A stretch of DNA of 64,000 nt from Prolixibacteraceae bacterium (GCA_037140615.1 JBAXED010000004.1:8485-72484); one strand, 5' to 3'. Positions 4,681 to 56,019 are shown, numbered from the stretch's first letter. Notes: generated by a model not told the origin, from the sequence alone. Numbers and translations: made by a program.

Positions 4681-5436
4681 ATGGACATTATATTAAACAA
4701 TATCTGGCTGATACTTTTTGTTGTGTGGGGTATTCCACTTACCTGGTTTAGAAGTAAGTTCAGAAAGATGGTCTATCAAACAGATAGTTGGATTATTAAC
4801 ATTAAACCCGTTTTCATGGATGAAATAAAAGCCTTGTTTGGCAACAAATTTCCTGATAACAGACAGTACATCAGGCTGAGGAATTCTTATCGTAGTTATC
4901 TGTCGATTTATCTGATTTTATTTTTGTTGTATGTAAATTTTCAAAGTAAAGCACAAACTTTAAATAGCAATAAAATGGCAACTGTCTCTGTTGGAAGCAT
5001 CATCCCCGAATTTAGTTTGAAGGATCAATCAGGCAATAATTTTGATATCCAATCTGTTCTGGGCAAGAAAAATCTTGTCATCTATTTTTATCCGAAAGAT
5101 GATAGCCCAGGATGTACGAAGGAGGCCTGTTCCTTTAGGGACCAATTCGAAGTATTTGCCGATGCTAACGCTTTAATCATCGGAATTAGCTCTCAATCTG
5201 TGAAAAGTCACAAGGAGTTTGCTGATAAATACAGGCTCAATTATACTTTGTTAAGCGACGAAGAGGGAAAGGTTCGTAAACTTTTTGGAGTACCTACTAA
5301 TTTTCTTGGTTTGATTCCTGGCAGGGTCACCTATGTTGTGAACAAAGAAGGGAAAGTTGTTTACCTTTTTAATTCACAAATTAAAGCAGAACAGCATGTT
5401 AGTGAAGCCCTTAAAATATTGAAAGAGATGAAATAA
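4681..5436 (+). CDS. bcp: thiol peroxidase Bcp (peroxiredoxin) with a 98-aa two-TM N-terminal extension; alternative start ATG 4975
   Basis: FYPKDDSPGCTKEACSFRD peroxidatic-Cys motif. The canonical ~153-aa Bcp starts at MATVSVG (nt 4975). The upstream 294 nt are in frame and hydrophobic. Confidence 0.8.
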   Translation: MDIILNNIWLILFVVWGIPLTWFRSKFRKMVYQTDSWIINIKPVFMDEIKALFGNKFPDNRQYIRLRNSYRSYLSIYLILFLLYVNFQSKAQTLNSNKMATVSVGSIIPEFSLKDQSGNNFDIQSVLGKKNLVIYFYPKDDSPGCTKEACSFRDQFEVFADANALIIGISSQSVKSHKEFADKYRLNYTLLSDEEGKVRKLFGVPTNFLGLIPGRVTYVVNKEGKVVYLFNSQIKAEQHVSEALKILKEMK

Positions 5437-6035
5437 TGGGTTTAATTCATATTCTGCCTGTTTTTCTTGCTTACATTATTGGCGCAATCCCTTTTGGTTA
5501 TCTGTTAACTAAAAGAGCCACAGGCTTAAACATTCTTGAACAGGGTAGTGGCAACATTGGTTCAACGAATGTTCGCCGCATTGCAGGAAAAAGAATCTCG
5601 ATTCAGGTCCAGATTTTAGATATGCTGAAGGGTTTTCTTCCCGTAATTTTAGTATTAATGACCAACAAATCAGGTTATATACCCATCCCTGACTATTATA
5701 TTTTAATCATTGCATTCAGTACTATAATTGGTCATAACTTCTCTGTATTTCTGCGCTTTAGGGGAGGGAAGGGAGTAAATACGACACTCGGCGCGACTCT
5801 GCTTTTGGCACCTGTAGAAGTATTAAGTGCCGTCGTTATTTATTTTATAGTAAAGTGGCGATTTAGATATGTGTCCATAGGTTCAATTGTTCTTGCTTGC
5901 GCGCTTCCTTGTAGCGCCATATTTTGTAAGGAAAAAACGTACTTGATCATCTATCTGTTTCTGTGTTGCTTTATGATTCTTTTCCGCCATCTGCCAAATA
6001 TTAAGAGACTAATAGCCGGAAGTGAGCTTCATTGA
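5436..6035 (+). CDS. plsY: glycerol-3-phosphate acyltransferase PlsY
   Basis: GSGNIGSTNVRR motif, ~200-aa polytopic membrane protein. Its ATG overlaps the bcp stop. Confidence 0.9.
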   Translation: MGLIHILPVFLAYIIGAIPFGYLLTKRATGLNILEQGSGNIGSTNVRRIAGKRISIQVQILDMLKGFLPVILVLMTNKSGYIPIPDYYILIIAFSTIIGHNFSVFLRFRGGKGVNTTLGATLLLAPVEVLSAVVIYFIVKWRFRYVSIGSIVLACALPCSAIFCKEKTYLIIYLFLCCFMILFRHLPNIKRLIAGSELH

Positions 6036-6079: not shown

Positions 6080-6158
6080 ATTAATTGGAATCGTTACAAA
6101 TGTTACTTAATGTTTAATTTGTATTTAGAATAAATTAATGTATTAACATAATTATATA
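6080..6158 (+). promoter_or_regulatory. conserved AT-rich upstream element, copy A (core ATTAATTGGAATCGTTACAAAT)
   Basis: About 75% identical over ~80 bp to 10908-10990, with a 21/22 core match. It lies ~280 nt upstream of the 61-heme gene start. Confidence 0.45.
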
Positions 6159-6360: not shown

Positions 6361-9300
6361 ATGCGCTACTTGTCCCTTACAATAGTCGTCTTAATAATGG
6401 CTCTAATTGTTCATGGACAGACTTCCCCGCACGGGAAATCTTTCCAGATCGATTGTGCACAATGCCATACTTCCACCAACTGGAAGGTAAATCCCACAGC
6501 AATTCAGTTCAACCACGACATTACCAATTTTAAGCTGGTTGGTCAGCATTTGATTGTCAATTGCAAGGATTGTCATCTTGTGCTCACTTTCAAGGATGGG
6601 CGAAGCAATTGTCTTGATTGTCATGCAGATGCACACAACCAGTCGTTGGGTAAAGATTGCGGGAAATGTCATACGCCGAAATCCTGGATCATCAGTGATG
6701 TTACTGCCATGCATCAAAAAACAAGATTTCCGCTATTGGGTGCACATAGAACTGTCACTTGTAGTGAATGCCATAAGTCTGCTTCAAAATATCAATATGA
6801 GCCTCTTGGAATAGAATGTGTCAACTGTCATAACACAGATTTTCAGAAAACAACAACCCCAAATCACGTAACGAATAAATATTCAACATTTTGTCTGGAG
6901 TGCCACAACGAAAATTCAAATAGCTGGCGCACAACTCTAACAAGCCATGAATCGTTCCCTCTAACAGGTGGTCACAAGGTTGGATGCGGCTTATGCCATA
7001 CAACAGGTCATTACGCCAAAATTCCTACTGATTGTAATAATTGTCACAATAAACAGTATATAGCATCACAAATACCTAAGCATCAATCTGCAGGTATCCC
7101 GGTAAAATGCGAAACCTGCCATAATACCTCCACTTGGAAGCCTTCCAGCTTTAATCACCTTGCAACTGGTTTTGAATTAAAAGGATCACATAAAAATGTA
7201 GTACAATGTTCTGATTGCCATAAAGGAAATTTGACAAGTGCAAAACAAACTTGCATCAGTTGCCATCAGGTTCAATATGATAAAGCTCCCAACCATAAAA
7301 CTGTAAATTATCCACTAGATTGTACTCAATGCCATACACAAATTAATTGGGTAGATAATACCTTTAACCATTCTGCAACAAATTATCCACTTACAGGTGC
7401 TCATCAAAAAGTTAAATGCGGTGATTGCCATTTGACTACCTTGAAAGGAACACCTACTGTCTGTGGCAGTTGTCACCTTGCAACCTATAATAACTCCCAG
7501 GTACCCGCTCATGCGTCTGCAGGAATTCCAAAAGAATGCGCCACTTGCCACACAACAGCTGCATGGAAACCTTCCGGTTTTAACCATACAACAACAGGTT
7601 ATGAGTTGAAAGGTGCGCACAAATTACTGGTGCAGTGTTCATTGTGTCACAAGGGAAATGTTACTTCAGCACCACAAACCTGTGTCGGATGTCATCAGGC
7701 CAAATACGAAGTTGCTCCTAATCACAAAACTCTGGGCTATCCAACAGATTGTATTATGTGCCATACTCAGAACAATTGGTTGGAAAATAGCTTTAACCAT
7801 GCCACAACTGCCTTCCCATTAACAGGATCTCATGCATCAGTTCAATGTTCAAAATGTCATGTTGTAAGTTTTAAAGGAACATCTGCTATTTGTAGCAGTT
7901 GCCATTTGCCGGCGTATATCAGTTCAAAGTTACCTGACCATGTGGCAGCCGCTATACCAAAAGAATGTGCCACCTGCCATACTACAGTTTCCTGGAAACC
8001 TTCATCCTTCAATCATGCCACTACTGGCTATGAATTAAAAGGTGCACATACAAGCATTGTGCAGTGTTCACAGTGTCACAAAGGAATTGTCACTTCAGCA
8101 CCTCAGACTTGTTTAGCCTGCCACCAGACCAAGTATGATGCAGCTCCTAATCATAAAGTCAATGGTTTTCCAACTGATTGTGCCATGTGTCATACCCAGA
8201 ATAACTGGTTGGAAAATAGTTTTAACCATTCCACTACAGCCTTTCCACTGACCGGAGCACACACCAATGTTATCTGCTCAAAATGCCATACTGTTGGTTT
8301 TAAGGGGACATCCGCTGTTTGTAGTAATTGCCATATGCCAGTTTATACAAGTTCACAGATTCCTACCCATGTAGCTGCCGGTATTCCAAAGGAATGTGCA
8401 TCCTGCCATACGACAGCATCATGGAAGCCATCTGTTTTCAATCACACTACCACTGGTTATGAATTGAAAGGAGCTCATAAAAGCGTTGTTCAGTGTTCGC
8501 AATGTCACATAGGCAATGTCACTACTGCCCCTCAGGTATGTGTTGGATGCCATCAGGTTCAGTACAATGTGGCACCGGGTCATACGAAATATGGATTCTC
8601 AACTGATTGTGCCAAATGCCACACTCAAGACAACTGGTTATCAGCAATTTTTGATCATGCAGTAACTAATTTTCCGTTAACAGGTGCTCATTCAAAGGTC
8701 ATATGCGCTTCATGTCATGCCAATGGTTATACAGGAACTTCAACTGTTTGCAGCAGTTGCCATTTACCTGCTTTTAACAGTTCTCAAAATCCTGGTCACG
8801 TTGCCGCAGGCATTCCAAAGGAGTGTGCAACATGTCACACGATTGTATCCTGGAAACCATCCTCATTTAACCATACGACTACAGGATATGAACTTAAGGG
8901 GGCTCACAAGCTAATAGTTCAGTGTTCGCAATGTCACAAAGGCAATGTCACCAGCGCACCACAGGTTTGCATTGGATGCCACCAGGCGCAATACGATGTT
9001 GCACCCTCACATAAATCAAGTGGATTTTCAACAGATTGCGCCAAATGCCATTCTCAAGACAATTGGCTTTCTGCGAATTTTGACCATTCAACAACAAATT
9101 TCCCATTGACAGGAGCTCATACAAAGGTTCTTTGTGCTACCTGTCATGTAAAAGGCTATGCAGGCACTTCAACAGCTTGCAGCAGCTGTCACCTGCCGGT
9201 TTATACGAGCTCTCAACTGCCTGGTCACGTGGCTGCAGGTATACCAAAGGAGTGTGCGACCTGCCATACCACAGCAGTATGGAAACCTTCTACCTTCAAC

Positions 9301-10812
9301 CATACTACTACTGGTTATGAGCTAAAAGGCGCCCACAAACTGATTGTTCAGTGTTCAGACTGTCACAAAGGGAATGTTACAACTGCCGCCTTAACCTGCG
9401 TTGGATGCCATCAGGCCAAATATGATGCAGCATTGAATCACAAAGCACAGGGATACCCCACAGATTGCTCCATGTGCCACACCCAGAGCAACTGGTTGGA
9501 GAACAGTTTTAATCATGCCACAACGGCCTTCCCATTGACTGGGGCTCATACAACAGTTTTATGCTCAAAATGTCATATTGTTGGCTTCAAAGGGACGTCG
9601 ACAGTTTGTAGTAGCTGCCATTTGCCGGTATATACGAGCTCTCAATTGCCTGGTCACGTGGCTGCAGGTATACCAAAGGAGTGTGCGACCTGCCATACCA
9701 CAGCAGTATGGAAACCTTCTACCTTCAACCATACTACTACTGGTTATGAGCTAAAAGGCGCCCACAAACTGATTGTTCAGTGTTCAGACTGTCACAAAGG
9801 GAATGTTACAACTGCCGCCTTAACCTGCGTTGGATGCCATCAGGCCAAATATGATGCAGCATTGAATCACAAAGCACAGGGATACCCCACAGATTGCTCC
9901 ATGTGCCACACCCAGAGCAACTGGTTGGAGAACAGTTTTAATCATGCCACAACGGCCTTCCCATTGACTGGGGCTCATACAACAGTTTTATGCTCAAAAT
10001 GTCATATTGTTGGCTTCAAAGGGACGTCGACAGTTTGTAGTAGCTGCCATTTGCCGGTATATACGAGCTCTCAATTGCCTGGTCACGTGGCTGCAGGTAT
10101 ACCAAAGGAGTGTGCATCCTGCCATACCACAGCAGTATGGAAACCGTCTACATTCAATCATACAACCACAGGTTATGAACTGAAAGGTGCACATAAACTA
10201 ATAGTTCAGTGTTCACAATGCCACAAGGGAAATGTCACTTCTGCAGCTCTAACTTGCATTGGCTGTCATCAGACAAATTATGATACAGCTCTGAACCATA
10301 AAGCACAGGGATACCCCACAGATTGTGCCATGTGCCACACTCAGAACAACTGGTTGGAAAATAGTTTCAATCATGCCACAACAGCCTTCCCATTGACTGG
10401 AGCTCATACAACAGTTTTATGCTCAAAATGTCATACAACAAGTTTTAAGGGGACTTCTACGCTATGTTTCACATGTCATGCAGTGAAATACAATGCATCG
10501 ACAAATCCGAACCATCTTGGCGCTAAGTTTCCTACAAATTGCGAAATCTGTCATTCTACCAAGGCATGGACTCCTTCAACCTACAACCATGATGCTCAGT
10601 ATTTCCCAATAAACAGTGGGCGGCACAAGGGAGCATGGACGCTATGCACCGAATGTCATACGGTTCCTACTAATTATGCTACATTTAGTTGTATTGTTTG
10701 CCATACACATAGCAATAAGACAACAGTAGATGGAAATCATAAAGGCGTTAAAAATTATGCCTATACCGGTACATCCTGCTATACATGCCATCCCCGGGGA
10801 ACTACTAACTAA
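6361..10812 (+). CDS. giant multiheme c-type cytochrome, 61 CxxCH motifs, poly-c7-like modular architecture, Sec signal peptide
   Basis: I counted 61 CxxCH in 1483 aa (~24 aa per motif). Signal peptide MRYLSLTIVVLIMALIVHG. Repeated FNH / G(A/S)H / NHK histidines could serve as distal ligands. Confidence 0.9.
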   Translation: MRYLSLTIVVLIMALIVHGQTSPHGKSFQIDCAQCHTSTNWKVNPTAIQFNHDITNFKLVGQHLIVNCKDCHLVLTFKDGRSNCLDCHADAHNQSLGKDCGKCHTPKSWIISDVTAMHQKTRFPLLGAHRTVTCSECHKSASKYQYEPLGIECVNCHNTDFQKTTTPNHVTNKYSTFCLECHNENSNSWRTTLTSHESFPLTGGHKVGCGLCHTTGHYAKIPTDCNNCHNKQYIASQIPKHQSAGIPVKCETCHNTSTWKPSSFNHLATGFELKGSHKNVVQCSDCHKGNLTSAKQTCISCHQVQYDKAPNHKTVNYPLDCTQCHTQINWVDNTFNHSATNYPLTGAHQKVKCGDCHLTTLKGTPTVCGSCHLATYNNSQVPAHASAGIPKECATCHTTAAWKPSGFNHTTTGYELKGAHKLLVQCSLCHKGNVTSAPQTCVGCHQAKYEVAPNHKTLGYPTDCIMCHTQNNWLENSFNHATTAFPLTGSHASVQCSKCHVVSFKGTSAICSSCHLPAYISSKLPDHVAAAIPKECATCHTTVSWKPSSFNHATTGYELKGAHTSIVQCSQCHKGIVTSAPQTCLACHQTKYDAAPNHKVNGFPTDCAMCHTQNNWLENSFNHSTTAFPLTGAHTNVICSKCHTVGFKGTSAVCSNCHMPVYTSSQIPTHVAAGIPKECASCHTTASWKPSVFNHTTTGYELKGAHKSVVQCSQCHIGNVTTAPQVCVGCHQVQYNVAPGHTKYGFSTDCAKCHTQDNWLSAIFDHAVTNFPLTGAHSKVICASCHANGYTGTSTVCSSCHLPAFNSSQNPGHVAAGIPKECATCHTIVSWKPSSFNHTTTGYELKGAHKLIVQCSQCHKGNVTSAPQVCIGCHQAQYDVAPSHKSSGFSTDCAKCHSQDNWLSANFDHSTTNFPLTGAHTKVLCATCHVKGYAGTSTACSSCHLPVYTSSQLPGHVAAGIPKECATCHTTAVWKPSTFNHTTTGYELKGAHKLIVQCSDCHKGNVTTAALTCVGCHQAKYDAALNHKAQGYPTDCSMCHTQSNWLENSFNHATTAFPLTGAHTTVLCSKCHIVGFKGTSTVCSSCHLPVYTSSQLPGHVAAGIPKECATCHTTAVWKPSTFNHTTTGYELKGAHKLIVQCSDCHKGNVTTAALTCVGCHQAKYDAALNHKAQGYPTDCSMCHTQSNWLENSFNHATTAFPLTGAHTTVLCSKCHIVGFKGTSTVCSSCHLPVYTSSQLPGHVAAGIPKECASCHTTAVWKPSTFNHTTTGYELKGAHKLIVQCSQCHKGNVTSAALTCIGCHQTNYDTALNHKAQGYPTDCAMCHTQNNWLENSFNHATTAFPLTGAHTTVLCSKCHTTSFKGTSTLCFTCHAVKYNASTNPNHLGAKFPTNCEICHSTKAWTPSTYNHDAQYFPINSGRHKGAWTLCTECHTVPTNYATFSCIVCHTHSNKTTVDGNHKGVKNYAYTGTSCYTCHPRGTTN
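7537..10479 (+). repeat. in-frame tandem array of a 429-bp (143-aa, six-CxxCH) module, ~6.9 copies
   Basis: The periodic protein pattern CATCH..FNH..GAH..CSxCH..CxGCH..NHK..CxMCH..FNH..GAH..CSKCH..CSSCH recurs every 143 aa. Confidence 0.85.
9218..10115 (+). repeat. perfect 429-bp-period tandem duplication (2.09 copies) inside the cytochrome gene
   Basis: 9218-9686 is identical to 9647-10115 at lag 429 in line-by-line comparison. The flanking mismatches are at 9217/9646 and 9687/10116. Confidence 0.9.
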
Positions 10813-10870
10813 ATTAGAAAAGGGCAAATTTTCAATCTGAAATTTTCTAGTAAAAATTTGAGTTGCGTAG

Positions 10871-10888
10871 ATCAAAAAGCTTTTTGAT
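10871..10888. other. 18-nt perfect palindrome ATCAAAAAGCTTTTTGAT (weak terminator or binding site)
   Basis: Self-complementary sequence 59 nt downstream of the 61-heme gene stop. It is AT-rich, so its terminator strength is doubtful. Confidence 0.3.
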
Positions 10889-10907
10889 AGTCTGATTTCG
10901 TTGAAAA

Positions 10908-10990
10908 ATTAATTGGAATCATTACAAATATAAATAATGAGATAATTTATATTTAAAATAAATTGGTTAAAATGCATTTAATTATATCTA
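10908..10990 (+). promoter_or_regulatory. conserved AT-rich upstream element, copy B (core ATTAATTGGAATCATTACAAAT)
   Basis: Paralogous to 6080-6158. It lies ~296 nt upstream of the 11205 ORF start. Confidence 0.45.
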
Positions 10991-11204
10991 GATGGATAGT
11001 GATTATCTATAATAAAATCAGATACATAGCAATATTATTTATTTGACCGTATATAAAAAAGATTTTAAAAATTTAAAAATTTTGATTTTTCAAATTAAAT
11101 CAAAAAGTAACCCAGCAACCCGATTAGTTTAAAAAATTTCCTTCATGTGCTTCATAATGTTAGTTTTACACTTGATTCTTAACATGTGATTTGGAACATA
11201 AGAG

Positions 11205-12155
11205 TTGAACAAAAGTGTTGTGTTAAAAAAAAAGAATAACTTCACTTTACAAGTTACAGGTAGAAAGAATGTTAACAATCCCTTATTTGTTGCCATGAAA
11301 TTAAAAGATTCTACGATACATCAGATTGTCATTTCAGCATTAGTTGCCATAGTTGCCGGCATAGTTATAGTATTGTTATACATTGGCTATAGCTATTATT
11401 CAATTCCTATCGAAGAGAGACACTTTCATCCACTAAATCAATCATTTAAAGCTAGCGGTATTGTTGGACATGGCTTAGGCATTGTTGGTTCTGTCCTGAT
11501 CTTGGTCGGTGTATTCACCTATATTATCAGAAAGCGATTTCATCAATTTTCACGGATAGGCATTTTGAAGCATTGGCTGGAGTTCCATATATTCCTCTGC
11601 ACGCTAGGGCCATTCTTGATTCTATTTCATACCACTTTTAAATTTGGAGGAATTGTTGCAGTAAGTTTCTGGAGTATGGTGGTTGTTTTTCTTAGTGGAA
11701 TTATAGGAAGATATATTTATCTCCAAATTCCAAGATCAATTGAAGGGCAAGAACTCACACTTCTTGAACTTGAAGATCAGAAGATTGAAATGAACAAACA
11801 ATTAAGGCAGTCTGTTACATTGGACGAAAGTATTTATGAGCTTATAAATGTAACACCCAATAAATCAAAAGGCAATAGTAATTTTTTTGGAAGAAGTAAA
11901 GAGGAGCGAATGGCCTTTGGACAATTGAGAAGGGATTTGAAAATCCAAAAGCTTCCCACCAAAAAGGCAAGGGAAATAATTAGAATTTTTAAAAGTCAGT
12001 TGAGGCTTAAAAAGCGAATTGAGCGTTTGGTAACCATGCAAAAGCTTTTTTCCTACTGGCATGTGGCTCATTTACCATTTGCTTTAATCATGCTGGTGGT
12101 TATGATTATTCATGTTGTAGTCGCAGTTACTTTTGGTTATAAATGGATTTTTTAA
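11205..12155 (+). CDS. integral membrane protein, 5 predicted TM helices, two His-x13-His helices (candidate di-heme cytochrome b-like conduit)
   Basis: The ORF track start is TTG 11205; an alternative ATG is at 11295. H128/H142 lie in TM3 and H289/H303 in TM5. K/R-rich loops at 108-122 and 174-282 predict that both helices run cytoplasm to periplasm. Confidence 0.7.
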   Translation: MNKSVVLKKKNNFTLQVTGRKNVNNPLFVAMKLKDSTIHQIVISALVAIVAGIVIVLLYIGYSYYSIPIEERHFHPLNQSFKASGIVGHGLGIVGSVLILVGVFTYIIRKRFHQFSRIGILKHWLEFHIFLCTLGPFLILFHTTFKFGGIVAVSFWSMVVVFLSGIIGRYIYLQIPRSIEGQELTLLELEDQKIEMNKQLRQSVTLDESIYELINVTPNKSKGNSNFFGRSKEERMAFGQLRRDLKIQKLPTKKAREIIRIFKSQLRLKKRIERLVTMQKLFSYWHVAHLPFALIMLVVMIIHVVVAVTFGYKWIF

Positions 12156-13495
12156 TTATGGAAGTACTAATAGAAAATTTGGTCATTTATTCTCTGGTTG
12201 CAATATTTATTGTAGCTATTATTATGATTTATATTCTCAAGGGAAAGAGGGAATCACGCGTTGTGGAAGCCAAAATTGCCATTGCAATTGAGGAGGGAAT
12301 ACATGAACCGGTCACATTGCATCCTGTGATTGATGTAAACAGCTGCATCAAAAGTGGAGCCTGCATTACCGCATGTCACGAAAAGGATATAATTGGGATA
12401 AAAGATGGAAAGGCGACTATTATCAATGCTTCTCATTGCATTGGACATGGAGCTTGCTTTCATGCTTGTCCGGTTCAGGCTATCTCACTTTTTATTGGTA
12501 CTGAAAAGAGAGGCGTTGAATTGCCACACGTCGATCAAACATTTGAATCAAATGTTCCTGGAGTATATATTGCCGGGGAGATGGGAGGAATGGGTCTAAT
12601 AAGGAATTCAGTAGAACAGGGCAAGCAGGCAGTTGAGAACCTGATGAAAAAAATTGATAAAACAGTTGATGCTCAATATGATTTGCTAATTGTTGGTGGT
12701 GGGCCTGCCGGTGTATCTGCCTCCCTTGCGGCAAAGAAAAATAAGCTCAACGCATTGACTCTTGAGCAGAATAGCCTGGGTGGAACAGTCTTTACTTTTC
12801 CACGAGCGAAAATTGTCATGACATCAGCCATGGATTTACCCCTGCATGGTAAAGTTAAATTTAGTGAAACCAGTAAATCAGAGCTTCTGAATCTTTGGAC
12901 AACAGTGTTGACGAATAATGATATCGATCTTCGTGAGAACGCTAAAGTTGAGTCTATTACCCCAATTGATAATTATTTTTTGACAAAAACGCTGGATGGT
13001 CAGGAGTTTACCTCTCGCAAAATTTTGCTTGCCATTGGAAGAAGAGGTTCTCCCCGCAAGTTGAATGTTAAAGGAGAAGAGAGTATGAAAGTGGCTTATC
13101 GGCTGCTGGAACCGGAACTTATAATAGGGAAAAGAGTTTTGGTTGTTGGAGGAGGAGATTCAGCGATCGAATCTGCCTTGCTTCTAACTGACGAAAATGA
13201 AGTAACGCTTTCTTACAGAAGCGATGCATTTGGACGAATTAAGCCAAAAAACAATGAAAAGATCAGAGAAGCGATTGCAAATAAAACTGTAAATATGCTC
13301 TTTAATTCAAATGTGACATCCATTGAGGACCATCAGGTTAAATTATTTTTGTCGGATATTAAGGAAGAGGTTGTTCTCGAAAATGACCTTGTTTACATTT
13401 TTGCCGGAGGAGAACTGCCAACTCAGTTTCTAGAGAAAATAGGCATTAAAATCACCAAAAAATTTGGAGAAGCAATTCTTAAGCACGAAAAGTAG
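12143..13495 (+). CDS. membrane-anchored ferredoxin-like domain + FAD/NAD(P)-binding pyridine-nucleotide-disulfide-oxidoreductase-family protein
   Basis: N-terminal TM helix. Two Cys clusters CIKSGACITAC and CIGHGACFHACP. Dinucleotide motifs LLIVGGGPAGVSA and VLVVGGGDSAIE. The start overlaps the previous stop (or uses ATG 12158, 3 nt after it). Confidence 0.8.
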   Translation: MDFLIMEVLIENLVIYSLVAIFIVAIIMIYILKGKRESRVVEAKIAIAIEEGIHEPVTLHPVIDVNSCIKSGACITACHEKDIIGIKDGKATIINASHCIGHGACFHACPVQAISLFIGTEKRGVELPHVDQTFESNVPGVYIAGEMGGMGLIRNSVEQGKQAVENLMKKIDKTVDAQYDLLIVGGGPAGVSASLAAKKNKLNALTLEQNSLGGTVFTFPRAKIVMTSAMDLPLHGKVKFSETSKSELLNLWTTVLTNNDIDLRENAKVESITPIDNYFLTKTLDGQEFTSRKILLAIGRRGSPRKLNVKGEESMKVAYRLLEPELIIGKRVLVVGGGDSAIESALLLTDENEVTLSYRSDAFGRIKPKNNEKIREAIANKTVNMLFNSNVTSIEDHQVKLFLSDIKEEVVLENDLVYIFAGGELPTQFLEKIGIKITKKFGEAILKHEK

Positions 13496-13500
13496 TTTTA

Positions 13501-15123
13501 TTGGAAATTGATTTTAATAAAGCGGAAATGAGATTTGTATTTAGAATAGTATTTATTATTTGCATCCTGTCAATTTCTTTGCCTGGGAAATCTCAAATTT
13601 CGCCTGGAGAACTTTCAAAAGTTCACGCTCACCTGGAAGGAATGTCTAATTGCACCCAATGTCATACTTTGGGAGCGAAAGTATCAAACGAAAAATGTTT
13701 GGACTGCCACAAGGAGGTCAAGAAACGACTGAATGAAACCAGGGGTTATCATGCTTCATCAAAGGTCAAAAGCAAAGAATGTATTATTTGCCATAGTGAG
13801 CATTATGGTCGGAATTATGACATTGTCCACTTGATTAAGGATAAGTTTGACCATAATGAAACCGGGTATAAGCTGGAAGGAAAGCATGCAAAGAAAGAGT
13901 GCGCTGATTGTCACAAGATTGCAAATATCTCTGATCCTCAATTAAAGAACAAACATGAGACTTTTCTGGGATTGAGCGAGTCATGCCTTCCTTGTCATGA
14001 AGATTTTCACCAGAAGACCCTGCCAGTAAACTGCTTAAATTGTCACAATTACGATGCTTTTAAACCTGCCACTAAATTTGATCATGCTAAAACAAAATAT
14101 CAATTAAAAGGCAAGCATATTGATGTAGCTTGTGAAAAATGCCACCCGAAAAGTTCCCGGAATGGAAAAAATTTCCAGCAATTTTCAGGGTTGCAATTTC
14201 AAAATTGTGTAGCTTGTCATAAGGATCCCCACGAAAATAAATTTGGTCAGAATTGCATGCAATGTCATGTGGAGGAGTCGTTTAAGTCTGTAAAAAGCAT
14301 AGGGCAGTTTGATCATAGCAAGACTGGATTTGAATTGATTGGTAAGCACATTCAGGTGGCCTGTAAGACATGCCACAAAACCAATCTTACGGCTGCGATT
14401 AAACATGAGAAATGCACAGATTGCCACAAGGACTATCATAAGAATCAATTTAGCAAGGCCGGTAAATCGCCGGATTGTTCTGAATGTCATGATGTAACTG
14501 GGTTTGTTCAGTTTTCTTATTCGGTTGAGAAGCATAATCTTTCTAAATTTAAGCTCGAAGGAGCACACCTTGCTATTCCTTGCCTCGACTGCCATAAGAA
14601 AGAGAAAGAGTGGAATTTCAAAAATATTGGAGAAAGATGCGTGGATTGTCACAAGGACATTCACAAAGACCTGATTGATACAAAATATTATCCAGTTCAA
14701 AAATGTGAAAATTGCCATCAAGTGTTGGCTTGGAATGAAATTAAGTTTGACCACAAACTAACATCTTTTGACCTTCAAGGTAAACATGCGGCCACTTCTT
14801 GCAGGAAATGCCATTTTGATGAAAAAATCAACAAGGGAATGAGTCAAAAATTTAAAGGCTTTGATGGGAATTGCGAAAGTTGTCATACGGATGTGCATCG
14901 CGCTCAATTTAGCAAGAACAACGAGATTGTTTGTTTGAAGTGTCATGGTTTTAACAACTGGAAGCCAGAAAAATTCAACCACAATACAACCAGGTTTAAA
15001 TTGGATGGAGGTCATAAAGATGTAGCTTGTGCCAAATGCCACAAACTGCTGACAGAAGGGAATAATACGTACATTAATTACAAATTTAAAGACATATTAT
15101 GCGCTACTTGTCACTTACAATAG
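13501..15123 (+). CDS. multiheme c-type cytochrome, 20 CxxCH motifs; likely start ATG 13528
   Basis: I counted 20 CxxCH. The signal peptide MRFVFRIVFIICILSISLPGKSQ begins at 13528. Repeated FDH..T..L.GKH....CxxCH....CxxCH.D.H modules. Confidence 0.9.
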   Translation: MEIDFNKAEMRFVFRIVFIICILSISLPGKSQISPGELSKVHAHLEGMSNCTQCHTLGAKVSNEKCLDCHKEVKKRLNETRGYHASSKVKSKECIICHSEHYGRNYDIVHLIKDKFDHNETGYKLEGKHAKKECADCHKIANISDPQLKNKHETFLGLSESCLPCHEDFHQKTLPVNCLNCHNYDAFKPATKFDHAKTKYQLKGKHIDVACEKCHPKSSRNGKNFQQFSGLQFQNCVACHKDPHENKFGQNCMQCHVEESFKSVKSIGQFDHSKTGFELIGKHIQVACKTCHKTNLTAAIKHEKCTDCHKDYHKNQFSKAGKSPDCSECHDVTGFVQFSYSVEKHNLSKFKLEGAHLAIPCLDCHKKEKEWNFKNIGERCVDCHKDIHKDLIDTKYYPVQKCENCHQVLAWNEIKFDHKLTSFDLQGKHAATSCRKCHFDEKINKGMSQKFKGFDGNCESCHTDVHRAQFSKNNEIVCLKCHGFNNWKPEKFNHNTTRFKLDGGHKDVACAKCHKLLTEGNNTYINYKFKDILCATCHLQ

Positions 15124-18100
15124 TCGTCGTGTTGATGGCTTTAAATGTTTTGGGACAGACTTCCCCGCATGGGAAGGCATTCCAGATCGATTGTGCACAA
15201 TGCCATACTTCCACCAACTGGAAGGTAAATCCTACGGCAATTCAGTTCAACCATGACAATACCAATTTCAAGTTGGTTGGTCAGCATTTGGTTGTCAATT
15301 GCAAGGATTGTCACTTGTCCCTTACCTTCAAGGATGGGAGAAGAAACTGTATTGATTGTCATACAGATGCCCACAACCAGTCATTGGGTAAAGATTGCGA
15401 AAAGTGTCATATGCCGAAATCCTGGATCATCAGTGATGTAACAGCCATGCATCAAAAAAACAGATTTCCACTTTTAGGTGCACATAGGACAGTAAATTGC
15501 AGTTCATGCCATAAGTCGGCGTCACAATTTCTATTTGAGCCTCTTGGAATAGAATGTGTCAACTGTCATAACACAGATTTTCTGAAAACAACAACCCCAA
15601 ATCACGTAACGAATAAATATTCAACATTTTGTCTGGAGTGCCACAACGAAAATTCAAATAGCTGGCGCACAACTCTAACAAGCCATGAATCGTTCCCTCT
15701 AACAGGTGGTCACAACGTTGGATGCGGCTTATGCCATACGACAGGTCACTACACCAAAATCCCTACTGATTGTAATAATTGTCACAATAAGCAATATATA
15801 GCATCACAAATACCCAAGCATCAGGCTGCGGGTATACCTGTTAAATGTGAAACCTGCCATAATACTTCTAGCTGGAAACCATCCAGTTTCAACCATCTTT
15901 CGACTGGTTTCGAATTAAAAGGATCACATAAAAATGTTGTACAGTGTTCTGACTGCCACAAGGGTAATTTGACAAGTGCAAAGCAAACCTGCCTAAGCTG
16001 TCATCAGGTTCAATATGACAAAGCTCCCAACCACAAAGCAGTAAACTATCCGGTTGACTGTACTCAATGTCATTCCCAAATTAATTGGATAGATAATACT
16101 TTTAACCATTCTGCTACAAGCTATCCACTAACAGGAGCTCATAAAGTAGTGAAATGCGGTGATTGCCATTTGACCGCATTGAAAGGAACGCCTACAGTTT
16201 GTAGTGGCTGCCACCTTTCCACTTATACCAACTCACAGGTGCCAGCTCATGCTTCTGCAGGAATTTCCAAGGATTGTGCAACCTGTCACACCACAGTAGC
16301 ATGGAAACCTTCCGGTTTTAACCATACAACCACAGGTTATGAATTGAAAGGTGCGCACAAATTACTGGTGCAGTGTTCATTGTGTCACAAGGGAAATGTT
16401 ACTTCAGCACCACAAACCTGTGTCGGATGTCATCAGGCTAAATATGATGTAGCCCCTAACCACAAAGCTCAGGGCTATCCAACAGATTGTATCATGTGTC
16501 ATACACAGAACAATTGGCTGGAAAATAGCTTTAACCATGCCACAACAGCCTTTCCCTTAACCGGATCTCATATTTCAGTTGATTGTTCGAAATGTCATAC
16601 TGTTGGTTTTAAAGGAACACCAGTGGTTTGCAGCAGCTGCCATTTGCCGGCATATACCAGTTCCATGTTACCTGACCACGTGGCGGCCGGAATACCCAAA
16701 GAGTGTGCAACTTGTCATACAACGGTTTCCTGGAAACCTGCATCTTTTAATCATACCACAACAGGCTATGAGCTGAAAGGGGCGCATAAAAGCGTCGTTC
16801 AGTGTTCAGTGTGCCACAAAGGAAACCTGACTTCAACACCTCAGACTTGTATATCATGTCATCAGGCACAGTACGATGTTGCGCCTGCGCATAAGAAAAG
16901 CGGATTTTCAACTGATTGTGCCACATGCCATACACAAGACAACTGGTTATCCACTACTTTTGATCACTCAACTACAACTTTTCCTTTGACTGGAGCTCAT
17001 ACCAAGGTTGTTTGTTCTTTATGCCATGCCAATGGATATGCAGGAACTTCAACAGTATGCAGTAGCTGCCATTTACCTGTATATACCAGTTCTCAAACGC
17101 CTGGTCACGTTGCAGCAGGTGTCCCAAAAGAGTGTGCTACCTGCCATACCACAATTTCCTGGAAACCATCTTCGTTTAACCACTCAACCACCGGTTATGA
17201 GTTAAAAGGGGCTCATAAACTAATTATTCAGTGTTCACTTTGTCATTTAGGAAATGTAACATCCGCTCCACAGGTATGTATTGGATGCCATCAGGCACAA
17301 TACGATGTTGCACCATCACACAAAGCAAGCGGATTTTCAACAGATTGCACCAAATGCCATTCACAGGACAATTGGCTTTCCGCCAATTTTGACCATTCAA
17401 CAACTACATTTCCTCTTACCGGAGCTCATGCCAAGGTTCTCTGTACTACTTGCCATATCAATGGTTATGCCGGTACTTCAACCGCATGCAGTAGTTGCCA
17501 TTTGCCGGTTTATACGAGTTCTCAATTGCCAGGTCACGTTGCTGCGGGGATACCAAAGGAGTGCGCAACCTGCCACACCACCGTCGTATGGAAACCTTCT
17601 ACTTTCAACCATACCGCCACAGGATTTGAACTCAAAGGAGCGCATAAGCTTATAGTTCAATGTTCAGATTGTCATAAAGGAAATCTCACCTCCGCATCTT
17701 TGAGCTGTATTGGATGCCATCAGGCTAAATATGATGCAGCACCAAATCATAAAGCACAGGGATATCCAACAGACTGTACAATCTGCCACACCATGAACAA
17801 CTGGCTGGAGAACAGCTTCAATCATGCAACAACAGCCTTCCCATTGACTGGAGCTCATACCACTGTTTTATGTTCCAAATGTCATACCGTTGGTTTCAAA
17901 GGCACTCCGACAGCATGCAATAGTTGCCATTTACCGGTTTATACGAGTTCGCAATTACCTGGCCACGCTGCCGCTGGAATACCTACTGATTGTGCAACCT
18001 GTCATACAACAGCTGTATGGAAACCATCTACATTCAACCATACTACCACCGGATACCAACTACTAGGTGCGCATAAGCTTTTAGTCCAATGTTCAGATTG

Positions 18101-18689
18101 CCACAAAGGAAATGTCAAAACTGCGGCCTTAACATGTGTAGGTTGCCACCAGGCTAAATATGATGCAGCCCTTAACCATAAGGCACAGGGATATCCTACA
18201 GATTGTGCAATGTGCCACACTCAGAACAACTGGTTAGAGAATAGCTTCAATCATGCCACAACTGCCTTCCCATTGACTGGAGCTCATACTACTGTTTTAT
18301 GCTCTAAATGTCATGCCACAACTTTTAAGGGTACTTCGACATTGTGTTTCACTTGTCATGCAACCAAATACAATGCATCCACAAATCCGAACCATCTAGC
18401 CGCTAAATTCCCTACTAATTGCGAAATTTGTCATACTACCAAGGCATGGACTCCTTCAACATACAACCATGATGCTCAGTATTTCCCAATTAGTAGTGGA
18501 CGGCACAAAGGGGTATGGACGCTTTGTACCGAATGTCATACAGTTGCTACTAATTATGCCACTTTTAGTTGTATCGTTTGTCATACGCATAGCAATAAGG
18601 CTAGCATAGACAGCAGTCACAAAGGCATAAAAAATTATACATATACCGGTACATCTTGTTACACATGCCATCCCCGGGGAAATACTTAA
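15099..18689 (+). CDS. giant multiheme c-type cytochrome, 49 CxxCH motifs, paralog of 6361-10812
   Basis: I counted 49 CxxCH in 1196 aa. The signal peptide and N- and C-terminal caps match the 61-heme paralog. Its start overlaps the upstream gene by 25 nt. Confidence 0.9.
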   Translation: MRYLSLTIVVVLMALNVLGQTSPHGKAFQIDCAQCHTSTNWKVNPTAIQFNHDNTNFKLVGQHLVVNCKDCHLSLTFKDGRRNCIDCHTDAHNQSLGKDCEKCHMPKSWIISDVTAMHQKNRFPLLGAHRTVNCSSCHKSASQFLFEPLGIECVNCHNTDFLKTTTPNHVTNKYSTFCLECHNENSNSWRTTLTSHESFPLTGGHNVGCGLCHTTGHYTKIPTDCNNCHNKQYIASQIPKHQAAGIPVKCETCHNTSSWKPSSFNHLSTGFELKGSHKNVVQCSDCHKGNLTSAKQTCLSCHQVQYDKAPNHKAVNYPVDCTQCHSQINWIDNTFNHSATSYPLTGAHKVVKCGDCHLTALKGTPTVCSGCHLSTYTNSQVPAHASAGISKDCATCHTTVAWKPSGFNHTTTGYELKGAHKLLVQCSLCHKGNVTSAPQTCVGCHQAKYDVAPNHKAQGYPTDCIMCHTQNNWLENSFNHATTAFPLTGSHISVDCSKCHTVGFKGTPVVCSSCHLPAYTSSMLPDHVAAGIPKECATCHTTVSWKPASFNHTTTGYELKGAHKSVVQCSVCHKGNLTSTPQTCISCHQAQYDVAPAHKKSGFSTDCATCHTQDNWLSTTFDHSTTTFPLTGAHTKVVCSLCHANGYAGTSTVCSSCHLPVYTSSQTPGHVAAGVPKECATCHTTISWKPSSFNHSTTGYELKGAHKLIIQCSLCHLGNVTSAPQVCIGCHQAQYDVAPSHKASGFSTDCTKCHSQDNWLSANFDHSTTTFPLTGAHAKVLCTTCHINGYAGTSTACSSCHLPVYTSSQLPGHVAAGIPKECATCHTTVVWKPSTFNHTATGFELKGAHKLIVQCSDCHKGNLTSASLSCIGCHQAKYDAAPNHKAQGYPTDCTICHTMNNWLENSFNHATTAFPLTGAHTTVLCSKCHTVGFKGTPTACNSCHLPVYTSSQLPGHAAAGIPTDCATCHTTAVWKPSTFNHTTTGYQLLGAHKLLVQCSDCHKGNVKTAALTCVGCHQAKYDAALNHKAQGYPTDCAMCHTQNNWLENSFNHATTAFPLTGAHTTVLCSKCHATTFKGTSTLCFTCHATKYNASTNPNHLAAKFPTNCEICHTTKAWTPSTYNHDAQYFPISSGRHKGVWTLCTECHTVATNYATFSCIVCHTHSNKASIDSSHKGIKNYTYTGTSCYTCHPRGNT
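16275..18359 (+). repeat. in-frame tandem array of the 429-bp six-CxxCH module, ~4.9 copies
   Basis: Same 143-aa periodicity as in 7537-10479, with exactly two fewer modules. Confidence 0.85.
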
Positions 18690-18789
18690 TCTTATAATTT
18701 TGAAATGGTTGATTTAGAATGATTTTTGTTTTATTGAGACAAGAAAAAGATGGCAGATTCTGAATTAATGGTATCTGGAATGTTAAAAA

Positions 18790-18797
18790 TAATTTTG
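18790..18797 (+). promoter_or_regulatory. candidate Bacteroidota -7 box TAATTTTG
   Basis: Perfect TAnnTTTG 21 nt upstream of ATG 18818. No clear -33 TTTG was seen. Confidence 0.35.
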
Positions 18798-18817
18798 TAA
18801 ACGTATTAATTTGATTG

Positions 18818-20425
18818 ATGAGAATTATAATAATCATATTTGGAATGTTTTTGCTCTTACCAGCTGTTTCCGCCCAAAATGGGAAAACAGAAATTGAAGG
18901 AGCAGTAACTTACCAAACCACTCAAAATGTTTATGTCAAATTTTTATCGGCAAGAGGTATTAAAATCGGAGATAAAATTTTTCTCCGGAAGGATCAACTT
19001 CTCGTACCCGTTTTGAATGTGGAGAATGTTTCTTCTGTTTCTTGTGTTGGAAAACCAATTGGAAATGAAAAATTCAAGGTCGGTGACAAACTAATTGCCT
19101 TGGTTTCAAAAGAAGAAGCAGCAGTTGAAAAGGAATTACAAAAGGAACAGGCTGTTGCATTGGTGCCAGATAGCTCGAAATCAGGAATTAGTAAAACCCC
19201 CATTGCCACATCAAGTAGGAAACAACGCATCGATGGGCGAATTCAAATATCCTCTTATTCAAATCTTTCAAGTTTACCTTCCGGCAATAACAATCGGTTG
19301 AGGTACATCTGGTCTATGAATGCCACCAATATTTCAGATTCACGAATTTCATTGGATGCTTACATATCATTTTCCCATAAGTTGAACGATTGGGCACCAA
19401 TCAAGGAGAATATTTTTAACGGACTAAAAATTTACGACCTCAATCTGCAATATGAAGTCGGTGATAACACTACTATCTGGTTGGGAAGGAAAATCAATCC
19501 TAATATTGCCAGTCTAGGTGCGCTTGATGGTTTACAATTTGAAATGAAGTTCAAACATTTTTTCTGGGGAGCTGTAGGAGGCTTCAGACCTGATTATGTC
19601 GACTATAGTTTTAATAAGAATTTGTTGGAATATGGTGCATTTATTGGCCATATGGCAAAAAATATGAATGGAGTCATGCAGACTTCATTGGCTGGATTCA
19701 ACCAAACCAATTCCGGTCATACTGACCGACGTTTTGTTTATTTTCAACATGATAACTCATTGTTGAAAAATGTCAACCTTTTTCTGTCTTCAGAGGTAGA
19801 TCTGTATAAAATAATCAACGGACTTCCTGTCAATGAATATACCTTGACGAGTTTATACTTAATGCTGAACTATAGGATATCCAGAAAGCTTTCGGTTTCA
19901 ACTTCCTATGATAATCGTAAGAATATTATTTATTACGAGACCTATAAAAATTACGTCGATGCAATGCTGGCAGATGCAACAAGGCAAGGTGTACAATTTA
20001 GGATCAATTATCGACCAATTAATTACATGAGCATTGGTTTCTCATCTAGTTACTGGGATCGGGCAGGGGATAGCAGACCAACTAAAAACTTCAATGGAAT
20101 ATTTACCTATTCACAACTTCCGCTATTGAAAGTTTCATCTACTTTAACTGCTAATATACTGCAAACTAGTTATGTAGATGGGGCGATTTATGGGATTAGA
20201 TTTGATAAGGATTTTTTCAATGGCAAGATGAACTGGGGATTAAACTACAGATATGTTGATTATACCTACCTGGCCTCTTCAGGAAAACTCATCGAACACA
20301 TTGGCGCCGCTGACTTATCCATTCAATTTACCCGTAAATTTTCCATGTCAGTTAGCTATGAAGGAACCTTTGAACAACAGAATGTTTACCACCAGATCTA
20401 TGGTAGTCTGATTAAGCGTTTTTAA
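18818..20425 (+). CDS. predicted outer-membrane beta-barrel protein with ~140-aa N-terminal soluble domain
   Basis: Signal peptide MRIIIIIFGMFLLLPAVSAQ. Many amphipathic alternating stretches rich in Y/N/S/G (for example GVQFRINYRPINYMSIGFSSSYWD). C-terminal Phe (SLIKRF). Confidence 0.7.
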   Translation: MRIIIIIFGMFLLLPAVSAQNGKTEIEGAVTYQTTQNVYVKFLSARGIKIGDKIFLRKDQLLVPVLNVENVSSVSCVGKPIGNEKFKVGDKLIALVSKEEAAVEKELQKEQAVALVPDSSKSGISKTPIATSSRKQRIDGRIQISSYSNLSSLPSGNNNRLRYIWSMNATNISDSRISLDAYISFSHKLNDWAPIKENIFNGLKIYDLNLQYEVGDNTTIWLGRKINPNIASLGALDGLQFEMKFKHFFWGAVGGFRPDYVDYSFNKNLLEYGAFIGHMAKNMNGVMQTSLAGFNQTNSGHTDRRFVYFQHDNSLLKNVNLFLSSEVDLYKIINGLPVNEYTLTSLYLMLNYRISRKLSVSTSYDNRKNIIYYETYKNYVDAMLADATRQGVQFRINYRPINYMSIGFSSSYWDRAGDSRPTKNFNGIFTYSQLPLLKVSSTLTANILQTSYVDGAIYGIRFDKDFFNGKMNWGLNYRYVDYTYLASSGKLIEHIGAADLSIQFTRKFSMSVSYEGTFEQQNVYHQIYGSLIKRF

Positions 20426-20452
20426 TTTTTTCATCTCAATTTATATTCTACA

Positions 20453-20505
20453 GGTAAACAAAACAAAAGGGTTTTCATTCCGAAAACCCTTTTGTTTTGT
20501 TTACC
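20453..20505. terminator. bidirectional intrinsic terminator, 24-bp perfect stem with 5-nt loop
   Basis: 20453-20476 pairs perfectly with 20482-20505. It lies between convergent stops at 20425 and 20519. Confidence 0.8.
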
Positions 20506-20518
20506 TTAAAAAAACTTC

Positions 20519-23908: not shown

Positions 23909-23926
23909 AATTACTTTATTTGTCGA

Positions 23927-25042: not shown

Positions 25043-25130
25043 CTTTTTATTATTTGTTTTTATAATATCTTTTTATTTTTCGGGAGACATATTCCTGATA
25101 AGGGAGCCTCCTATTTTATTTTTTGAGTTT

Positions 25131-26465: not shown

Positions 26466-26470
26466 AATTA

Positions 26471-41592: not shown

Positions 41593-41844
41593 GATGGTAA
41601 AATCTAAATTATTTTGGTTGTTTTAGTTTAAAAGTTTTATTCAATTTATCTTTTTTCTAGAAAATAGGGTGATTCGTATGCATTTGTTTTACAATCACCT
41701 AAATTAATATACAAATAAATAAATTTAGTCTATTTTTGTTACAATGTACAATAACTAGACTATTAGCTGCAATAGCTACAAACTAAGATATTCGATCAGA
41801 ATATTATCACATCAAATTATTTTTAAATAAATATCTGCCCTACC

Positions 41845-55960: not shown

Positions 55961-56019
55961 ATAAAATATATGTAATTTAGCTGAAAATTTTGAATTTATT
56001 ATTTTTTAAAATTATAGCT

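Follow-up and report, generated by a model that had tools for sequence, protein, structure and literature searches.

We describe here a gene locus within a 64-kb window of a Prolixibacteraceae metagenome-assembled genome (MAG; GCA_037140615.1, JBAXED010000004.1:8485-72484) that probably encodes a multihaem conduit carrying electrons across the cell envelope. Five genes, designated B to F, form the conserved module: a membrane protein with two pairs of conserved histidines (B), a membrane-anchored flavoprotein with a ferredoxin-like domain (C), a 20-haem cytochrome (D), a longer, repeat-built cytochrome (E) and an outer-membrane (OM) beta-barrel (F), whilst a sixth gene upstream, A, encodes a further giant cytochrome (Table 1). 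On balance we lean towards the more specific reading that B-C-D-E-F passes electrons from cytoplasmic NAD(P)H to the outside of the cell independently of quinones. A conduit of this kind had been proposed in a sequence-only reading of the same window, and the present analysis supports that interpretation as a candidate. The case is built on the parts themselves, their conserved ligands and residues, the co-occurrence and order of the genes and the barrel fold of F, all of which were observed.

Results

Conservation of the five-gene module

CxxCH haem-binding motifs, counted in all six frames of the window, totalled 130 in the plus-strand reading frames of A (61), D (20) and E (49), with just 7 in the remaining six-frame codons, in agreement with the counts and open reading frames (ORFs) of the sequence-only reading. 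The six ORFs lie between plsY and a convergent RND efflux operon, the flanks named in that reading, and all are annotated in GenBank as 'hypothetical protein' (WCI31_01285-01310), B being 100% identical to WCI31_01290. Spacing within B to E is as tight as had been described: B and C overlap by 13 nt and D and E by 25 nt, C and D are separated by 32 nt, and E and F by 128 nt, a gap in which no hairpin was found. Both overlaps are present in relatives too, which suggests translational coupling of B with C and of D with E. Alternative starts exist for B (11205 or 11295), D (13501 or 13528) and F (18815 or 18818).

Species-representative genomes were searched with an alignment of B homologues. Of 600 matching stretches, 596 were confirmed, so that a minimum of 596 species genomes have a match, and 80 loci were kept; the completeness counts rest on the 48 of these with at least 9 kb of sequence downstream of B. 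Essentially all 48 shared the order B, C, a cytochrome of 20 or 23 haems, at least one further multihaem cytochrome, and F. C was present in every one (four apparent misses were artefacts of ORF starts), at least two multihaem genes were present in 47, and a recognisable F in 44, the others either ending within the giant cytochrome or carrying a divergent 523-aa protein. Carriers among the kept loci included Prolixibacteraceae, Marinilabiliales, Rikenellaceae, Lentimicrobiaceae, Saprospiraceae, Lewinellaceae and others, and the flanking genes were unrelated. The B family itself comprises about 2,800 clusters at 50% identity. Among the matches listed, the genome scan with the closer B alignment returned mainly Bacteroidota, and a protein search with a diverse B profile returned Bacteroidota and Ignavibacteriota only. 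The same gene order, with a TPR gene inserted, was found in Melioribacteraceae (Ignavibacteriota), and the module also occurs on metagenomic contigs whose B is merely 32-33% identical, one of which has flagellar genes. Co-conservation of the barrel with the cytochromes, on which the proposal of a conduit had been staked in advance, was found in 44 of the 48 long loci, and it extends to Ignavibacteriota and to loci where B identity is about 32%. The analysis met with no orthologue characterised in another role, and none of the six genes reached an NCBIfam curated cut-off. Two cultured strains, Sunxiuqinia sp. A32 and Draconibacterium aestuarii Z1-6, are carriers.

Gene A stands apart from this module. 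It is 79% identical to E in amino acids and 81% in nucleotides, it is missing at the same site in the close relatives L001/L006, L003 and L005, and a close relative with a 4.16-Mb chromosome has plsY-B-C-D-E-F at that site without A. The sequence-only reading had counted A as a component of the system; it is better read as a lineage-specific paralogue of E, an accessory extra copy outside the conserved core, and the core is therefore the five genes B-C-D-E-F.

Several loci elsewhere carry additional genes. A 202-aa TPR protein is encoded between B and C in the Melioribacteraceae locus L082 (10885-11493). Pairs of plus-strand ORFs directly follow F in Saprospiraceae/Lewinella (about 263-305 plus 780-830 aa; L034, L035, L069) and in some Bacteroidales (about 506 plus 253 aa; L037, L039, L044), and these lineage-specific pairs, which do not occur in the Prolixibacteraceae window, may be accessory components. 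In a distant carrier (L084, 1-391), a 684-aa CbcL-like protein with multihaem c motifs and a Ni_hydr_CYTB domain is encoded about 10 kb upstream of the module, and this organism may also have a quinol-linked route.

A putative input module in the inner membrane

B had been described from its sequence as a protein of five transmembrane (TM) segments with two His-x13-His helices, and its homologues bear this out. The longest ORF, from TTG 11205, encodes 316 aa and the GenBank call is 311 aa; because homologues are nearly all 284-290 aa long and begin at a Met equivalent to ATG 11295, this ATG is probably the true start (286 aa) and the deposited start too far upstream. Five segments of B are hydrophobic or helical, and an insert of about 100 aa, rich in Lys/Arg, separates helices 4 and 5. 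The H-x13-H motif occurs as H98/H112 on helix 3 and H259/H273 on helix 5 (286-aa numbering). Three of these residues (H112, H259 and H273) do not vary across 36 diverse B sequences reaching down to 29% identity, and the fourth, H98, is kept in at least 90% of them. By the positive-inside rule, the Lys/Arg counts put loops 78-90 and 144-250 in the cytoplasm, a topology in which each pair has one His towards the cytoplasm (H98, H259) and one towards the periplasm (H112, H273). Cytochrome b, NOX and MsrQ rely on His pairs in this geometry to stack two haems across the membrane.

Scanned singly, the 36 B members gave sub-threshold Pfam matches to DUF4405 (22 members, best E 2.3e-5), Ferric_reduct (13 members, best E 5.5e-4), prokaryotic cytochrome b561 (Ni_hydr_CYTB, 11 members) and PepSY_TM (1 member). 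These weak matches sit on the His-bearing helices, those to DUF4405 covering both His regions in different members, and B of the window itself scored 9.4 bits against DUF4405 (PF14358; cut-off 26.7). The matches to Ferric_reduct, a family that the sequence-only reading had proposed checking, thus stayed below threshold, and a profile search of the PDB with the B alignment returned nothing meaningful. In purified form, DUF4405 was found to bind haem b, and its structure is like that of MsrQ and the PepSY-like cytochromes (PMC11334425). B is best treated as a new and strongly divergent family of probable di-haem-b proteins, outside the curated families.

C had been taken for a TM-anchored, ferredoxin-like FAD/NAD(P) oxidoreductase, and each of these elements was recovered. 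A TM segment was present at the N-terminus of 72 of 72 homologues with basic residues after it, an arrangement that places the bulk of C in the cytoplasm, and Pfam matched Fer4 (Fer4_10, Fer4_2) together with Pyr_redox_3/Pyr_redox_2. Across the 72 sequences, an FAD motif (GxGPAG) and an NAD(P)H motif (VVGGGDSA, then Tyr-Arg) were conserved. The closest solved relatives of the flavin domain were YpdA/Bdr and ferredoxin-NADP+ reductases (FNRs) of the TrxR type (E 1e-24 to 1e-9; best PDB matches 7a76 and 7a7b), with scores of 158 bits against a cut-off of 340 for YpdA and 82 against 343 for TrxR. All six Cys of the window's C fall inside the Fer4 domain, and since none lies outside this Fe-S domain C lacks a disulphide redox centre and is no disulphide reductase. 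These six residues form the ferredoxin-like motifs CxxT/SxxCxxxCP and CxxHxxCxxxCP (residues 68-110, window 12344-12472), and they are invariant, with His102, in the 72 sequences. The pattern departs from the eight-Cys arrangement of 2x[4Fe-4S] domains (two CxxCxxCxxxCP) and suggests that C carries one three-Cys cluster and one Cys3His cluster. For MsrQ-like proteins with a fused NAD-binding domain, NAD(P)H has been proposed as the cytosolic donor (PMC8238504).

The same two genes bear on a rather unlikely alternative, a conduit fed from the quinone pool, with B acting as a menaquinol-oxidising cytochrome b (like CybB-like proteins, CbcL or MsrQ) and C confined to a side role, for example as a maintenance reductase or second input. 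One of the weak matches of the B family, Ni_hydr_CYTB (cytochrome b561), is a quinone-reactive family, and CymA, ImcH and CbcL are quinol-oxidising entry points of extracellular electron transfer (EET). In addition, MsrQ was originally described as quinone-binding, according to a statement quoted in PMC8238504, and PMC6295460 has the characterised Gram-negative EET pathways all beginning at quinol. Against this, C adjoins B at each of the loci examined, all 72 of its homologues have the membrane anchor, and its gene overlaps or abuts B, whilst no quinone-site motif was identifiable in B. A B working alone is hard to reconcile with a C that is universal, membrane-anchored and translationally coupled, and we prefer the NAD(P)H-linked reading for the pair.

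Multihaem cytochromes of fixed and variable length

The domain searches proposed for the cytochromes returned Cytochrome_C7 and Cytochrom_c3_2 in A, D and E. None of the three came near the curated cut-off of the NCBIfam models for named cytochromes (DmsE/MtrA, OmcA/MtrC, HmcA, ExtN, NrfH), and no solved-structure relatives of D and E were found at the sequence level. The sequence-only reading had noted no decahaem MtrA-like protein, no quinol dehydrogenase of the NapC/NrfH/CymA type and no lipoprotein cytochrome, and these three absences stand: TIGR03508 (cut-off 192) gave 36.6, 48.6 and 47.5 bits on A, D and E, the sole trace of a quinol dehydrogenase was an NrfH score of 17.5 against 134 bits on D, and no lipobox was found. 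Its claim that an MtrC-like protein is also missing agrees with TIGR03507 (16.7 against 209 bits) but is blurred by PF22113, the MtrC-MtrF domain II/IV, whose summed score of 64-65 bits at the C-termini of A and E exceeds the cut-off of 30, no single stretch passing.

Neither CxxCK nor longer-spaced haem motif variants occur in A, D or E. His residues outside the motifs number about one per haem (64 for 61 haems in A, 24 for 20 in D and 51 for 49 in E), and Met is scarce in all three. Because of this combination, the haems are predicted to be bis-His ligated and to serve electron transfer rather than catalysis. A catalytic multihaem reductase was rejected on the haem ligation counts together with the variation in repeat number. 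As a specific form of it, an Nrf-, Otr- or Hao-like enzyme that respires a soluble N- or S-oxyanion in the periplasm seems to us very improbable: one D homologue does carry the JGI name 'nitrate/TMAO reductase-like tetraheme cytochrome c subunit', and there are weak NCBIfam matches to ExtN, octahaem and NrfH models, but these fall far below curated cut-offs, the locus has no CxxCK, no spare haem motifs without a distal His and no molybdopterin or sirohaem partner, and a range of 13-87 haems between species is unlike an enzyme active site.

This range belongs to one of the two cytochrome positions. The first cytochrome, at the position of D, has 20 haems in 53 fetched loci and 23 haems in 17, whereas the later, E-type cytochromes of other genomes together span 13-87 haems, making E the length-variable member. 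E and A are built from a tandem repeat of 429 nt, equal to 143 aa and six haems, with six units in E and eight in A. Units 6 and 7 of A (9178-10035) are 98.4% identical in nucleotides and 100% in protein, compared with 64-86% between other neighbouring units, which indicates a very recent tandem expansion and a process of repeat expansion that is probably ongoing; collapse or expansion of repeats during MAG assembly is a possible explanation instead. Saprospiraceae and related loci carry genes for 61-87 haems after B, C and a 23-haem cytochrome, and for this reason the giant cytochromes reported from Saprospiraceae of activated sludge (PMC11495043) are very probably E-type genes of the same module.

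A large outer-membrane barrel

F was described in the sequence-only reading as a beta-barrel-like protein with a signal peptide, ending in Phe, and structure prediction and Foldseek agree. After the signal peptide come a small domain of beta structure (residues 23-97), a Ser-rich and disordered linker some 30 residues long, the barrel and the terminal Phe. The model has about 22 strands, with a predicted local distance difference test score (pLDDT) of about 90 in the barrel, and it matched 321 PDB chains at E<=1e-3, usher and porin barrels reaching E of about 1e-9. The 24-strand usher pores FimD and PapC ranked first, ahead of porins and TonB-dependent receptors; usher pores, the best fold matches of F, pass folded proteins. 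No Pfam or NCBIfam model matched F at E<=0.01, those for MtrB/PioB included (MtrB_PioB, TIGR03509), and MtrB was not in the top 50 fold matches. A Pcc (porin-cytochrome) cluster has been reported in Ignavibacterium album by Shi et al. (PMC4245776), and in light of it F may be distantly linked to OmbB/OmbC. The N-terminal beta-rich domain and linker (residues 23-131, window 18884-19210) may be a periplasmic docking domain. Some F homologues are labelled 'ASC-1-like (ASCH) protein' by JGI, an annotation that looks spurious.

The barrel also bears on a further explanation, that the cytochromes never leave the periplasm and there store electrons like a capacitor, or dispose of oxidants such as O2, H2O2 or soluble metals, with F serving as a substrate porin. 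This we consider unlikely. For the giant cytochromes of Saprospiraceae a capacitor-like role has been put forward (PMC11495043), searches for a lipobox and with NCBIfam models found no export signal for A or E, and a gene for AhpC/TSA lies just upstream, here and in close relatives. However, the AhpC neighbour is not kept beyond close relatives, whereas F is co-conserved, and its modelled barrel of about 22 strands exceeds the 16-18-strand porins among its own fold matches. Proteins of 10-12 haems measure about 8-12 nm, and by analogy with these a chain of 49-87 haems would far exceed the width of the periplasm.

Proposed route of electrons and points against it

In the conduit as we picture it, C would be held at the cytoplasmic face by its N-terminal helix and would oxidise NAD(P)H at its FAD. 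Electrons would then pass through the two unusual Fe-S clusters of C, in which Thr/Ser or the invariant His occupies the usual position of the second Cys, and, through a presumed contact between the two proteins, to B. There, two predicted b haems would be stacked in the membrane as in NOX, MsrQ and the DUF4405 cytochromes, the inner haem bound by H98 and H259 on the cytoplasmic side and the outer by H112 and H273 on the periplasmic side, with no quinone taking part. The outer haem would reduce D, a 20-haem periplasmic bridge of fixed size, and D would pass electrons to the repeat-built E (and here also A), which would reach or pass through the wide barrel of F and, crossing the OM in this way, deliver them to metal oxides, humics, electrodes, partner cells or other acceptors outside the cell. 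Electron export in which protons are kept inside conserves no energy, and a redox-balancing role is therefore favoured: the system is likely to be an electron exhaust that regenerates NAD(P)+ in fermentative or oxygen-limited metabolism.

Flow in the opposite direction, in which extracellular donors such as Fe(II) minerals, cathodes or partners in syntrophy would reduce NAD(P)+ or ferredoxin in the cytoplasm, seems improbable to us. Mtr/Mto/Pio-type conduits are bidirectional (PMC8258643). FNRs of the TrxR type are generally known to be reversible, and bis-His multihaem cytochromes can be of low potential. Against this, inward transfer would presumably run uphill into a negative-inside cell to the potential of NAD(P)H with no coupling device in the locus, and the hosts are mostly organotrophs.

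Several points weigh against an outward, NAD(P)H-fed conduit. No experiments on this five-gene system were found in the literature, and many of its hosts, for example Saprospiraceae, are regarded as aerobes. B reached no Pfam gathering or NCBIfam threshold, and may contain a quinone site; aligned to E. coli MsrQ by hhalign it gave a non-significant E of 0.13 with the last His helix alone aligned, its AlphaFold2 model (18 homologues) was mediocre (pLDDT 67, predicted template modelling score 0.47), and Foldseek of that model against the PDB returned noise (best E 1.6). With six Cys only in its Fe-S domain, the type and number of the clusters in C are uncertain. Instead of a signal peptide, D may have an anchor at its N-terminus that is not cleaved. 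A and E lack a lipobox and matched no NCBIfam secretion-signal model (type IX secretion system), so that delivery of these 49-61-haem proteins to the surface is unexplained.

The favoured role as an exhaust has indirect ecological support in a Bacteroidetes MAG that rose 39-fold on an anode and carries a multihaem-plus-barrel cluster, itself uncharacterised (PMC8258643). As a tentative generalisation, of which we are less confident than of the conduit itself, the module could be an unrecognised and widespread form of EET in Bacteroidota and Ignavibacteriota, in which a split NOX-like module draws directly on NAD(P)H and bypasses quinones, a 20-haem bridge spans the periplasm, and a barrel-threaded, single-chain nanowire is tuned in length by its six-haem repeat (13 to more than 87 haems), providing an exhaust for fermenters and for oxygen-limited heterotrophs of sediment, peat and activated sludge alike.

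Upstream element, flanking genes and genomic setting

A near-palindromic element precedes both A and B, with the consensus TTAATTGGAATC(A/G)TTACAAAT for the two copies; at up to three mismatches these were the only two matches in the window, against none expected by chance. About 70 bp around the element can be aligned between the upstream regions of A and B, and since A has its own copy, A was either duplicated with, or recruited to, the control region of the operon. At a distance of about 375-385 nt, the core TTGGAATCNTTACAA also precedes B in L001/L006 and L003 (L001 9617-9631, L003 9627-9641), and a version with one mismatch lies upstream of B in L005. The element could be the binding site of a regulator ahead of a long leader. 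Rfam gave no match anywhere in the window, the leader included, and the leader therefore contains no known riboswitch. Scans for sigma-70 promoters and simple terminators performed at chance level and missed the long hairpin downstream of F. That hairpin closes the locus as had been proposed, its perfect stem measuring 25 bp rather than 24, and is probably a bidirectional terminator.

Table 1. Positions of the genes and sequence elements of the locus, in window coordinates.
Feature	Position	Strand	Description
plsY	5436-6035		Upstream flank of A
Near-palindromic element, copy TTAATTGGAATCGTTACAAAT	6081..6101	+	280 nt before A
Gene A	6361..10812	+	1483-aa secreted multihaem cytochrome, 61 CxxCH (motif counts, Pfam, repeats)
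Near-palindromic element TTAATTGGAATCATTACAAAT	10909..10929	+	386 nt upstream of B (from its ATG); candidate operator or promoter-associated site
Gene B	11295..12155 (alternative start TTG 11205)	+	286-aa 5-TM protein, four conserved His (alignment, topology)
Gene C	12143..13495	+	450-aa protein; TM anchor, 6-Cys ferredoxin-like domain and TrxR-type FAD/NAD(P)H domain
Gene D	13528..15123	+	531-aa cytochrome, 20 CxxCH, N-terminal signal or anchor
Gene E	15099..18689	+	1196-aa secreted cytochrome, 49 CxxCH, six 143-aa hexahaem repeats
Gene F	18818..20425	+	535-aa OM protein; signal peptide, about 22-strand barrel, C-terminal Phe
Inverted repeat	20452..20506	.	Perfect 25-bp inverted repeat, 5-nt loop, between convergent F and acrB

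The RND efflux operon beyond the hairpin (20519-27124, minus strand) is an ordinary one, encoding an AcrB-family pump, an HlyD-family adaptor, an OEP and a regulator of the TetR family; the operon and F converge on the long hairpin, which is common to both. Two ammonium-transporter genes lie close together at 40270-44193, with a type III glutamine synthetase (55990-58209) about 12 kb past them, an ordinary nitrogen-assimilation neighbourhood unrelated to the conduit. A mobile element or horizontally acquired island was rejected, as no mobility genes were seen within the window, in keeping with the sequence-only reading, and the GC content of the locus is within the window-wide range.

Discussion

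Novelty and implications

Parts of this system have been noted in passing. A survey mentions 'putative novel PCCs' in Bacteroidetes (PMC6344600), a cytochrome-plus-barrel cluster, likewise from Bacteroidetes and uncharacterised, has been reported (PMC8258643), and undescribed giant cytochromes of Saprospiraceae were reported from activated sludge (PMC11495043). The B-C input module and the five-gene unit were described in none of these three papers, nor elsewhere in the literature found, and papers on Melioribacter roseus (PMC5492636, PMC3534657), EET in peat (10.64898/2026.05.27.727921), Desulfuromonadia cytochromes (PMC11492766) and deep-sea chitin (PMC13374861) held nothing informative on this locus. 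The system had been called undescribed; this holds for the input module and the five-gene unit, but not for porin-multihaem clusters and giant cytochromes in Bacteroidota as such.

The module is conserved in hundreds of Bacteroidota and relatives, yet annotated merely as 'hypothetical'. To our knowledge, every characterised Gram-negative EET route starts at the quinone pool, and all are from Proteobacteria or Desulfobacterota. If the proposed route is correct, the cell exterior would be connected straight to NAD(P)H in the cytoplasm, a new input logic, and a role would be found for the giant cytochromes of Saprospiraceae and other Bacteroidota (PMC11495043). It would also tie Bacteroidota, the dominant degraders of polymers in sediments, soils and wastewater, to the reduction of metals, humics and electrodes and to electron transfer between species. 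The existence of cultured carriers makes the question of a conduit directly testable, and the repeat-expandable hexahaem unit and the predicted His-ligated Fe-S domain are of interest for bioelectronic design.

Comparison with known systems

The outer part of the module most resembles MtrCAB of Shewanella and, in Geobacter, Pcc (OmbB-OmaB-OmcB) and Ext. In these too, two multihaem cytochromes, one of them periplasmic, are encoded together with a large OM barrel, the haems are apparently all bis-His ligated and electrons are presumed to pass the OM. It differs from them in haem number (20 and 13-87 here, 8-12 there), in the absence of a lipoprotein cytochrome and in having its own inner-membrane input module, where those systems rely on the quinol oxidases CymA, ImcH and CbcL. 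Compared with MtrCAB in particular, the DmsE/MtrA and MtrB models missed the locus or scored far under their cut-offs, and F has about 22 modelled strands against about 26 in MtrB/PioB. The Pcc of Geobacter combines an 8-haem periplasmic cytochrome with a 12-haem OM lipoprotein cytochrome, in contrast to the 20 and 49 haems and the missing lipoprotein signal of this locus. The tandem c7/c3-like modules within one polypeptide recall the GSU1996-type 'nanowire' cytochromes of Geobacter, but the repeat unit here comprises six haems per 143 aa, and no significant match to solved cytochromes was obtained.

On the inner side, B shares with NOX, MsrQ-Fre, STEAP, DUF4405 and PepSY-like proteins His pairs on two helices with H-x13-H spacing and, by prediction, two b haems, and the B-C pair repeats the NOX/MsrQ arrangement of a cytoplasmic flavin/NAD(P)H partner that donates and an extracytosolic acceptor that receives (PMC8238504, PMC11334425). 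In the ferric-reductase superfamily (PF01794) the His of each pair are 12-14 residues apart, a spacing also found in B, which has five predicted TM segments against a six-TM core. B is set apart from NOX, MsrQ and DUF4405 by its cytoplasmic insert of about 100 aa and its sub-threshold family scores. The reductase, moreover, is a separate flavoprotein of Fer4 and TrxR-type domains, not an FNR-like FAD/NAD domain or Fre, and the proposed acceptor is a multihaem c chain rather than MsrP, O2 or a flavinylated protein. The flavin domain of C and its Rossmann motifs are related to those of TrxR-type FNRs (Chlorobaculum FNR, Bacillus YumC) and YpdA/Bdr, from which C differs by its membrane anchor, its ferredoxin-like fusion and a flavin domain free of Cys.

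A precedent for bypassing quinones exists in the Tmc and Hmc complexes of Desulfovibrio, which join periplasmic multihaem c, a membrane cytochrome b and a cytoplasmic Fe-S protein. The likeness lies in the link across the inner membrane between multihaem cytochromes and cytoplasmic Fe-S centres. HmcA, however, scored 27.9 against 400 bits here, the locus encodes no HdrD-like CCG protein and no NrfD-like subunit, and those complexes have no flavoprotein, no NAD(P)H site and no OM barrel. Judged by its predicted parts, the module appears to work like Mtr/Pcc/Ext in its outer half and like NOX/MsrQ-Fre in its inner half, whilst being a member of none of these systems.

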